From assembly GCA_034667725.1 (NCBI GenBank), contig JAXDQS010000005.1, positions 1 through 64,000 of the forward strand: DNA of 64,000 nt. The letters are read 5' to 3'. Both the position numbers and the translations under genes were made by a program. The notes under the pieces are model-generated. The model searched no databases and was not told the origin of the DNA. It saw only the letters and a list, made by a program, of their open reading frames with translations. The DNA comes from Thermoplasmata archaeon. GTDB lineage: Archaea; Thermoplasmatota; E2; JACPAO01; JAHFTW01. Shown here one piece after another: positions 1 through 34,988 of this stretch (position 1 is the stretch's first letter; the number at the start of each line of letters is the position of its first letter).

Positions 1-137
1 TGGCGATCTGCTCGCTCGCTGCGGCCCTGACGTGCCGCAGCGTCCGCGCGCACCTTCGGTGCGGCGCTTGAGCAGATCGCCGTCGCGCCTGGATGACCTG
101 GCTGCCGAGCCCTTCGTGCGGCGGAGCGCGCTTCGCG
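1..137 (-). repeat. Structured non-coding cassette downstream of secY, duplicating 13 nt of the secY 3' coding sequence (runs off the window edge)
   Basis: TGGCGATCTGCTC at 1-13 is identical to secY 194-206. Perfect 12-bp inverted repeat at 2-13/70-81 encloses two hairpins (17-42, 49-63). Confidence 0.75.
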
Positions 138-1706
138 CTACTCCGCGCCGAAGAAGCTGCGCAGCACAGGGTGCATTTCCATGGCTTGCTCCTTGGCGAT
201 CTGCTCATACATACGCATGAAGATGCCCACGCACAGCAGCAGGCCGGTGCCGGACGCTTGGCCGACGGTGCCGATCATGTCGGCCACGGCCGCCAGCAAC
301 CCGACGGTGGCGCCGCCGATGATGGTCAGGGTCGGGATGTAGCGGTCCAGCACCTTCTCGAGGACGCGGGGGTCGCGGCGGAAGCCGGGGATCTGCATCC
401 CGGACTTCTCGATCTGCTTGGCGACGTCGCGGGGGCCCATGTTGGTGGTGTCCACCCAGAACTTGGCGAACATGATGGAGCCGCCGACGTAGAGCGTGAG
501 GTAGATGCCGATCTTGACGAGGATCTGCCACCATTTGTGGTCGTACACCAGGCTGGAGTATCTCCCGTCGAACAGCGGCAGGAACCAGTCTTGCAGGCCG
601 CGGTACTGCTGGAGGTACCAGGCGCCGCCGGCGATGGCGCTGGTGGAGCCGGTGCCGGTCTGGTAGGTGCCGATCCACCATTGGTGCCCGAGGCCGGGGA
701 TGCCGCTGAAGGTGGGGTGCTGCCACAACAGCAGGCTGAAGATGTTGATGTTCGCCAAGAGCGCCGCCATCAGGATGACGGGGATGTTCGAGGCGTAGAT
801 GAGGCGCAGCGGGTAGCGGCCGCGGGCGCCGCGGACCTTGCCGTGCGCGAGGGGCAGCTCGATGCGGGTGGCTTCGGCGTACACCACGAAGATGAAGATC
901 ATCACGGTGCCGAAGAACGCGATCAGCGGGTTGGGGAACGCCTGGTTGCCGATGAAGACGGACTCGAAGCCGCCGTCGTGCACCATGCTGCTGAGGTCGC
1001 GGTTCCAGAAGACGTAGAACAGCATCGGGACCGAGCCGACGGGCGGGTTGGTGAAGGGGTTCATGGCGCCCGCGGACGGGTTGGAGGGCTCCCAGGACAC
1101 GGTGCCCTGGAACAGCGCCTGGCTGACGCCGGCGGCGATGAACAGCGAGATGCCCGAGCCGATGCCCCACTTGGAGATGAGCTCGTCCATCAGGAACACC
1201 AGGATGGCGCCGACGGCGAGCTGGGCGATGATGATGCTGCGGGCCCCGAGGTCGCCGACCTGGCCGATCAGGTTGCTGTCCGGGTTGAGGAAGCCGTACA
1301 CCTGGGGGATGGCTTCGATGAAGATGAACAGCAGGACCATGATCTTCTGCGCGCCTTGGTAGATGCGCTTGTCCTCGGTCTTGGTGAGGTCGAGCTTGAT
1401 GATCTTGGCGCCCGTGAACAGCTGCATCACGATGCTGCCGGTGACGATGGGGCCGATGCCGAGGTGCATCAGGGTGCCTTGGCTGCCGGCCAGGATGGCG
1501 CGGAAGCCGGCGAACAGGTCCAGCGACTGGCCCGCGATGCCGAACAGCGGGATGTTGCTGAGGGCGAAGTAGACCAGCAGGCAGACCGTGGTCCACAGCA
1601 GCTTGGTGCGGAAGGCGACGTGTCCCTCCGGCTTGGAGACGGCAGGCCACCGCTTGATGAGGGGGTCCAGCGCGTAAAGGGAGCTTCGGCGTTCGGTCTC
1701 GGCCAT
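138..1706 (-). CDS. secY: Preprotein translocase subunit SecY (archaeal)
   Basis: Motifs LGIGPIVTGSIVMQL, YASNIPVIL, GMQIPGFRRD, GTGLLL; multiple TM helices; follows rpl15. Confidence 0.98.
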   Translation of the reverse strand: MAETERRSSLYALDPLIKRWPAVSKPEGHVAFRTKLLWTTVCLLVYFALSNIPLFGIAGQSLDLFAGFRAILAGSQGTLMHLGIGPIVTGSIVMQLFTGAKIIKLDLTKTEDKRIYQGAQKIMVLLFIFIEAIPQVYGFLNPDSNLIGQVGDLGARSIIIAQLAVGAILVFLMDELISKWGIGSGISLFIAAGVSQALFQGTVSWEPSNPSAGAMNPFTNPPVGSVPMLFYVFWNRDLSSMVHDGGFESVFIGNQAFPNPLIAFFGTVMIFIFVVYAEATRIELPLAHGKVRGARGRYPLRLIYASNIPVILMAALLANINIFSLLLWQHPTFSGIPGLGHQWWIGTYQTGTGSTSAIAGGAWYLQQYRGLQDWFLPLFDGRYSSLVYDHKWWQILVKIGIYLTLYVGGSIMFAKFWVDTTNMGPRDVAKQIEKSGMQIPGFRRDPRVLEKVLDRYIPTLTIIGGATVGLLAAVADMIGTVGQASGTGLLLCVGIFMRMYEQIAKEQAMEMHPVLRSFFGAE

Positions 1707-34505: not shown

Positions 34506-34587
34506 GCACAGGTAGTCAAGTGGCCAACGACGGGAGGTTCAGGGCCTCCTTCTTCGTGATTCGCAGGTTCGAATCCTGTCCTGTGCA
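34506..34587 (+). tRNA. tRNA-Leu(CAG), no encoded CCA
   Basis: Acceptor GCACAGG/CCTGTGC+A; D arm GTC..TGG..GAC; anticodon arm GGAGG-TTCAGGG-CCTCC; long variable region; T arm GCAGG-TTCGAAT-CCTGT. Confidence 0.93.
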
Positions 34588-34588
34588 C

Positions 34589-34988
34589 TAAGCAAGGGTC
34601 GCTGCGCGAAGCGCCAGCGCCCGGTCCTGGAGTGTTGGACAGGATTCGCCGAGCGATGCGAAGCGAGCGAGGAATCCCTGCGCGACCGAAGGGAGCGCAG
34701 GGTCGAATCCTGTCCTGTGCACTCCAACAGCCAGCGATGCGCAGCGAGCGGTGCTGCGGAGTCGCACAGGGCAGGATTCGCCGAGCGACGCGAAGCGAGC
34801 GAGGAATCCCTGCGCGACCGAAGGGAGCGCAGGGTCGAATCCTGTCCTGTGCACTAGAACAGACAGACGTGTGCGCGCAGCGCCACACGCTGGTTTCGAA
34901 GGGCTGGGCAGGATTCGCCGAGCGCCGCAGGCGCGAGGAATCCCTGCGCGACCGAAGGGAGCATAGGGTCGAACCCTGTCCTGTGCAC
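34589..34988 (+). repeat. Array of three 83-86 bp structured repeats, each ending in the tRNA-Leu 3' end, separated by unique ~46-51 bp hairpin spacers
   Basis: Units 34637-34722, 34769-34854, 34906-34988; period 134/132/134 bp from the tRNA 3' end. Confidence 0.92.

Follow-up and report, generated by a model that had tools for sequence, protein, structure and literature searches.

Small folded DNA cassettes with target-matched stems behind secY and other conserved genes in a family of Thermoplasmatota

What occupies the short stretch between the end of secY and the end of its contig in a Thermoplasmata archaeon? We analyzed a 64,000-nt stretch of DNA (the window), whose position 1 is the end of contig C5 in a genome of 2.3 Mb and 71% GC (G000, 90% complete), together with genomes of the same family, all incomplete Thermoplasmatota metagenome-assembled genomes. 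An initial annotation had proposed a target-duplicating folded element behind secY, and the repeats from which it argued are present. The 13 nt at 194-206 recur exactly at 1-13, at a spacing of 193; an inverted copy lies at 70-81, and the arms 2-13 and 70-81 enclose an 80-nt span holding one inner hairpin with a C(GAA)G cap. The mini-hairpin GCGAAGC (127-137) stands right behind the TAG stop codon (138-140). This arrangement is not at the chance rate: a direct plus an inverted copy, even at 10 nt, arose in only 7 of 5000 dinucleotide shuffles of 1-206. The unit is best read as a gene-free mobile cassette of 120-230 nt, built of a gene-end copy, a GNA loop, an antisense copy, hairpin 1, GGA and hairpin 2 (Table 1).

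Table 1. Features of the secY locus, the tRNA-Leu array and the HNH gene; positions refer to the window unless a locus is named.
Feature	Position	Strand	Basis
secY CDS, host gene	138..1706	-	ORF list; Pfam SecY E 6e-71; stop TAG 138-140
Working secY end, last 22 codons and stop	138..206	-	Same peptide as two stranded C8 copies, 10 and 9 silent differences
GNA mini-hairpin (GCGAAGC) directly after secY stop; turn of tail:antisense rod	127..137	-	Sequence; circular fold
Antisense copy of distal secY end, worn and shortened	82..126	-	Global alignment p 0.0002
Antisense arm, perfect 12 nt, adjoining junction	70..81	-	Inverted-repeat match
Inner hairpin 1, cap C(GAA)G	46..67	-	Fold; base pairs kept in alignment A3
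Unpaired GGA of near-invariant GGAC junction motif	43..45	-	Alignment of 52 copies
Inner hairpin 2	17..42	-	Compensatory changes in 9/10 pairs (52 copies)
Start of stranded older secY end, running on into contig C8 7708-7774	1..13	-	Repeat match and C8 overlap
tRNA-Leu(CAG), host of sister array	34506..34588	+	tRNA call
Three sister cassettes, same plan, other junction sequence	34590..34988	+	Periods 134, 132, 134
HNH gene	L001:4027-4542	-	
HNH gene	L007:656-1201		

Folded as single-stranded DNA, the minus strand of 1-81 is predicted to form a three-way junction (-39.1 kcal/mol, z -7.3, equalled by 0 of 200 shuffles). Positions 82-126 are not a neutral linker: they align as antisense of the remaining secY end with a score of 38, compared with 12 ± 5 in shuffles (p 0.0002). 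A distal antisense copy is likewise found in the relatives L033, L034 and L036 (p 0.001), and is without significance in units E2, V, L035 and L039. Because 82-126 is antisense, the whole unit amounts to one long imperfect rod, made of gene end, GNA loop and antisense copy, with two short hairpins. Closed into a circle, the secY unit is predicted to be about 70% paired with three arms, and circularized units have fold z-scores of -2.6 to -7.7.

The initial annotation had suggested reading beyond position 1, and the array does go on there. The end of contig C8 overlaps window positions 1-89 (89 nt, 2 mismatches), unit-specific bases included, and carries more units and secY ends. The joined array 3′ of secY comprises three cassettes and three further gene ends, which on the secY strand run in the order end a (working), E1, end b, E2, end c, V, partial end. 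The E2 core is 98% like that of E1, and near-identical cores stand in tandem with different tails; V differs from both and its arm matches codons 14-17 of end c. The last, partial secY end is identical to end a over 39 nt. Since the finding touches contig position 1 and the C8/C5 overlap of 89 nt has 2 mismatches, an assembly artefact at the contig end might be suspected. We give this almost no credence: Logan contigs of the probable source run, assembled independently, contain 1-86, 57-158 and the joins to C8, and 25 further genomes show the same plan. The architecture is not an artefact, and only the exact unit count behind secY is uncertain. Related units are also present in Logan contigs of two other soil runs; the RNA run that we examined contained distant secY only.

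The three complete secY ends date these events. Ends a, b and c, of 69 nt each, encode the same 22 residues and differ pairwise at 10, 9 and 7 bases. All 26 of these 26 differences are silent, whereas a random change is silent in 19% of cases; they include a serine codon switch, and the three stop codons are all different. Because decaying dead copies would not give differences that are all silent, each of the three ends must once have been a working secY allele. The proposed duplication of the target site does not hold, the two ends being different alleles that differ only silently. These C8 alleles, together with an arm that tracks the upstream copy in relatives, suggest that the working end is the 5′ part of the newest cassette. 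Between working and stranded secY ends in relatives, 54 codons differ silently and 3 are changed. Comparison of filled with empty loci, also suggested at the outset, showed that secY is either filled or empty in relatives, with at least 4 different insertion sites in its last 23 codons.

To find further copies, we used a covariance model of the core (hairpin-GGAC-hairpin), built without arm or gene end. It found 14 places in G000 at E < 0.06. After refinement it had about 100 matches within this Thermoplasmatota family (26 of 32 genomes) and none in 6 genomes from other families of the same order; in one of those six, a similar unit at secY (L048) was recognized by eye. The predicted non-autonomous family therefore exists, with many target-matched copies in G000 and its relatives, and a given site may be filled in one relative and empty in another. 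Copies lie directly 3′ of rps7, nusA, TFB, rpl12, thermosome, EF-2, atpD, spt5, ftsZ, secY and tRNA genes and, as the initial annotation had it, each stem matches its own host gene, which stays whole. A less conserved gene has been given a longer, non-synonymous C-terminus by its cassette (L063, G000:C4:25350-26200). Nested units at nusA and secY stand in the order expected if newcomers enter the working gene. Cores L095, L276, L259, L275 and L292 lie behind non-coding stretches for which ARAGORN makes no call, possibly structural RNA genes.

In an alignment of 52 copies, the junction motif GGAC is conserved at 98%, 100%, 100% and 100%, in part through the way the model was constructed. In the same alignment, which was fitted to the model so that conservation and covariation lean towards it, 9 of the 10 pairs of hairpin 2 carry compensatory changes. 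Among well-closed triloops, C(GAA)G (20) and C(GCA)G (4) predominate. One subtype (L033, L078, L096, L103, L104, L109, L110) has a third hairpin three bases 3′ of the core, and those three bases vary with how the cassette's own gene end begins.

Could the cassettes be host RNA elements, such as terminators or stabilizers of mRNA and tRNA 3′ ends, that arose by local duplication and were kept for expression? Most copies do lie on the sense strand just 3′ of highly expressed genes, and hairpin 2 covaries. Nevertheless, we consider this account very improbable. The cassettes have no T tract, no terminator match and no Rfam family, and many relatives lack them. Their triloops are of a DNA type: the GCGNAGC mini-hairpin has been described for DNA, and its RNA counterparts are much less stable (PMC13037366). 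Dead copies that differ only silently are impossible by local duplication and decay. Cassettes at tRNA-Arg, -Leu, -Lys and -Ser genes (L084, L107, L132, L127, L123; G000:C2:79200-79520) stand on the antisense strand; they duplicate the 5′ end of the tRNA together with its promoter and include a copy of the anticodon arm, and in L132 four of them form a tandem. These antisense-strand copies fit DNA rather than a transcript signal, and together with the triloops they point to a single-stranded DNA intermediate.

With which gene end does the arm pair? The core model knew nothing of the arm, and comparing the arm with the two ends is therefore a blind test. Among 79 blind core matches, 70 have an arm whose pairing with the upstream end is better than that with the stranded one, and in 1 it is worse (better in 27 of 31 and 43 of 48, worse in 0 and 1, in the two parts of the set); the upstream side had more search freedom, for which the controls correct only roughly. 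The 12 bases before the core match the upstream end at 10 or more positions in 84% (n = 31) and 69% (n = 48) of cases, against 4.7% in the control, and the downstream end in 10% and 8%. At the level of sequence, the data show apparent selection mainly for pairing of the arm with the cassette's own end. Because the arm complements mainly the end that the cassette brought, it serves above all as the stem that closes the cassette's own fold. The earlier idea of an antisense, guide-like copy of the target is right in that the arm is target-matched; as for guiding, the arm could also pair with the resident target during exchange.

A second array in the window, behind tRNA-Leu, had been read as a parallel case. 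The plan is indeed the same, with perfect 12-nt arms (34637-34648 and 34704-34715) 79 nt apart. The core sequence differs. Because the plan is common but the core is unmatched by core models R1 and R2, we place the tRNA-Leu units in a sister subfamily. Similar units occur in Halorubrum (L185, L194), where a cassette with a hairpin, an antisense arm and a second copy of the tRNA end follows tRNA-Arg. With sister types included, 33 gene ends in G000 recur within 350 nt at a score of at least 20, compared with 4 in shuffled pairings, and for 11 tRNA genes a second copy of the 3′ end lies within 160 nt. An armless type of about 11 copies ends in a GGGGC-GNA-GCCCC hairpin, with a stranded gene end behind it that is mostly synonymous (sites include G000:C5:82723, C3:174677, C3:515560, C4:18606, C10:211380 and C10:330944), and a third type has a fixed motif starting AACATGCC ahead of the stranded end (G000:C3:517509 and C3:550371). 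In sister family B, gene ends as long as ~150 nt are duplicated in the absence of an arm, and hybrids connect the cassette types. A distinct, dispersed and AT-richer palindromic repeat, CACAGA / TCTGTG, forms intergenic arrays (G000:C3:57583-57812, C5:135054-135412, C10:119039-119272, C3:382200-382450).

The cassettes are mobile between lineages, as presence or absence and foreign alleles demonstrate; they replace gene ends, they place the newest unit first and their fold is conserved. How might they move? With modest confidence, we favor a cassette of folded single-stranded DNA that brings a gene end with it, relies on a fork-reading enzyme supplied in trans and has its target chosen by homology. 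The unit would travel as single-stranded DNA, probably as a closed circle that folds into three arms, with the arm paired to the cassette's own gene end. Having recognized the conserved fork rather than the stem sequence, the enzyme would carry out a single-strand exchange between the foot of the stem and the homologous position in the resident gene, and replication would complete the insertion. The gene would thereby gain the cassette's end, the old end would be left behind the core, and repeated arrivals would yield arrays headed by the newest unit. Target choice would rest on homology of the cassette's gene end to the host gene, which would account for the hits in strongly conserved genes. 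New specificities would probably arise when the mini-hairpin behind the stop codon primes fold-back copying. No circle junction was seen among the assembled contigs.

More tentatively, and with rather more doubt than belief, the cassettes could form a new protein-free class of mobile element whose site is defined by shape and whose closing stem sets the target by base pairing. Such a shape-read system would be naturally reprogrammable, since fold-back copying of any gene end would give a new specificity, and the C-termini of essential genes would be rewritten as the element spreads.

Several observations count against the favored account and bear on an alternative. At guaA-A (L343, G000:C2:2350-3680, minus strand), two full tandem paralogues of 193 amino acids each are followed by a cassette whose arm matches the second gene, yet the end of the first gene follows it (36-nt repeat); the unit thus holds a whole second gene while the first has kept its end, unlike simple circle integration. 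Some copies have merely 2-3 bases of resident target after the core, too little for site choice by homology, and family B duplicates ends without an arm. These cases are better explained by one-ended copy-in, in which the 3′ junction between core and resident gene is made at a fixed site, and the 5′ side is joined by homologous recombination, occasionally elsewhere, with donor DNA of variable length upstream of the core; rolling-circle one-ended transposition and homing with co-conversion are examples. Host recombination together with a structure-specific nickase such as those of the Ssn or HNH type would be enough, and SsnA is a known hairpin-directed single-strand nuclease (PMC11893778). We nonetheless regard copy-in, the main rival, as rather unlikely. 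Codons upstream of the duplication start give no clear sign of foreign usage (p 0.06 over five codons, with no signal beyond them), the stranded copy as a rule begins right where the arm has its foot, and the model does not need an arm kept complementary to the cassette's own end. Small GIY-YIG genes, moreover, are found in 4 of 38 genomes and without flanking cassettes.

Those GIY-YIG genes, between purE and guaA-B, encode proteins of about 200 amino acids (L307, L334, L335, L336) with a zinc-finger-like part and a C-terminal GIY-YIG domain; in G000 the only GIY-YIG match is UvrC-sized, and a weak match to the small type proved to be the opposite strand of another gene. The other enzymes that the initial annotation had suggested looking for did not turn up either. 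Y1 HUH transposase (PF01797) is found in 0 of 25 family genomes and is present in 3 distant members of the class; reverse transcriptase and IS110 were not found in G000. DUF559 and Cas1 were likewise not found in G000, which also has no nuclease-like gene flanked by cassettes, and one G000 resolvase is unlinked to them. The search of these incomplete genomes thus yielded no cassette enzyme. A single-copy HNH gene near secY, adjoining a chloride-channel gene, is specific to the family (19 of 25 family genomes, 0 of 66 outside) and is a weak candidate: it was not found in the cassette carriers G016, G017, G019 and G042, and it also stands at empty loci.

The units themselves hold no open reading frame. 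Might they be integrase-less, immobile remnants of larger integrative elements that inserted in gene ends and accumulated in tandem, with the core a leftover of the attachment region? Tyrosine recombinases are common in the family, and replacement of a 3′ end by an attP-borne copy is textbook behavior for integrative elements. In G000 a single tyrosine recombinase was found, at tRNA-Pro on C10 and not at any array (G000:C10:26900-28234; its last codons overlap the antisense 3′ end of the tRNA gene). Derivation from such elements appears quite improbable: a single core serves more than 10 unrelated targets and several secY sites, always in units of 120-230 nt; no recombinase, nuclease or other gene recurs inside or beside the ~80 copies inspected; near-identical cores stand in tandem with different tails; and viral contigs have no match to three core patterns. 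Plasmids match at chance level only, and bacterial matches in a GTDB pattern scan were rejected because they are without arm and second hairpin.

How do the cassettes compare with known systems? They are akin to CTXphi attP(+), integron cassettes and elements that restore gene ends, and are members of none of these groups. CTXphi attP(+) is a single strand folded into a forked hairpin whose stem consists of two inverted target-like sites; one strand is exchanged, and integration leaves one working site together with inverted and direct dead copies (PMC3089051). The cassettes share the plan of X, reverse X and X with a two-hairpin fork, including a forked hairpin closed by inverted sites. They differ in that the CTXphi stem is a fixed dif-like XerC/XerD site in the phage genome and its target is dif, whereas here the stem is target-specific and of any sequence, the targets are gene ends (secY, nusA, rps7, EF-2, TFB, ftsZ, tRNAs) and the unit is <230 nt.

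In integrons, the inverted arm of attC matches the cassette's own start. Integron cassettes are circular, have a folded single-strand attC and build tandem arrays with the newest first (PMC3053210). A folded single-strand site and an inverted arm matching the cassette's own start are found here too. By contrast, the core RYYYAAC ... GTTRRRY is absent, stems are target-derived and unrelated between loci, there is no attI, adjacent IntI or cargo gene, and the unrelated targets number dozens. When e14 and phage 21 integrate in icd, an attP-borne copy replaces the 3′ end of the gene, and tRNA islands are similar. Partial tRNA copies are linked to integrative elements (PMC9897764). These elements resemble the cassettes in bringing a replacement end, stranding the old one and accreting in tandem. 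Yet they are of kilobase size with one integrase per site, while the cassettes have no integrase nor evident decay from one, and they lack the antisense end copy and shared folded core that cassettes have.

Other groups are more distant. IS200/IS605 elements, PATEs and REP/RAYT systems have single-strand hairpin ends, non-autonomous copies and base-pairing between element and target (PMC6006769, PMC3119063, PMC3733652). They use a four-base guide (GTAG/CGTC or other) 5′ of the hairpin and do not duplicate the target, whereas in the cassettes up to 69 nt of gene end is present twice, the motif is a GGAC between hairpins and no Y1 enzyme was found in the 25 family genomes searched. Ssn nucleases act with NTS/SRM hairpin repeats that work as single-stranded DNA and affect recombination (PMC11893778); there, a fixed-sequence repeat flanks the nuclease gene and no gene end is replaced, and no gene flanked in this way was found here. 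MITEs have fixed terminal inverted repeats and an identical short target duplication, whereas here the arm varies with the target and the ends are different alleles. CRISPR arrays and casposons involve Cas1 and a constant repeat, and G000 has no Cas1. The 178-bp repeats at E. coli tyrT are tandem units of similar size, each ending in the last bases of the tRNA, and are possible relatives of the cassettes. To our knowledge such E. coli repeats are known only at tRNA genes and are unexplained, with no target-matched arm reported and no protein-gene targets.

The cassettes are real, widespread in one archaeal family and, as far as we found in the open literature, undescribed. The secY locus adds end replacement by foreign alleles in protein genes, the blind test of the arm and a full-length antisense rod. 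Because silent differences date and orient the events, protein-gene targets can be tested from sequence, whereas tRNA targets cannot. If our best reading is true, a 60-nt folded core would be inserted by an enzyme at freely chosen sequences set by a DNA stem of ~12 bp, leaving the gene unbroken. This would be DNA-programmed, scar-tolerant integration that goes beyond the four-base guides of IS200/IS605 or fixed attC and dif cores, and it would explain the long-unexplained tandem repeats behind tRNA genes. For the archaea that carry them, the cassettes are a route by which the last codons of secY, nusA, EF-2, ftsZ and rpl12 are exchanged between lineages, sometimes with an altered C-terminus.
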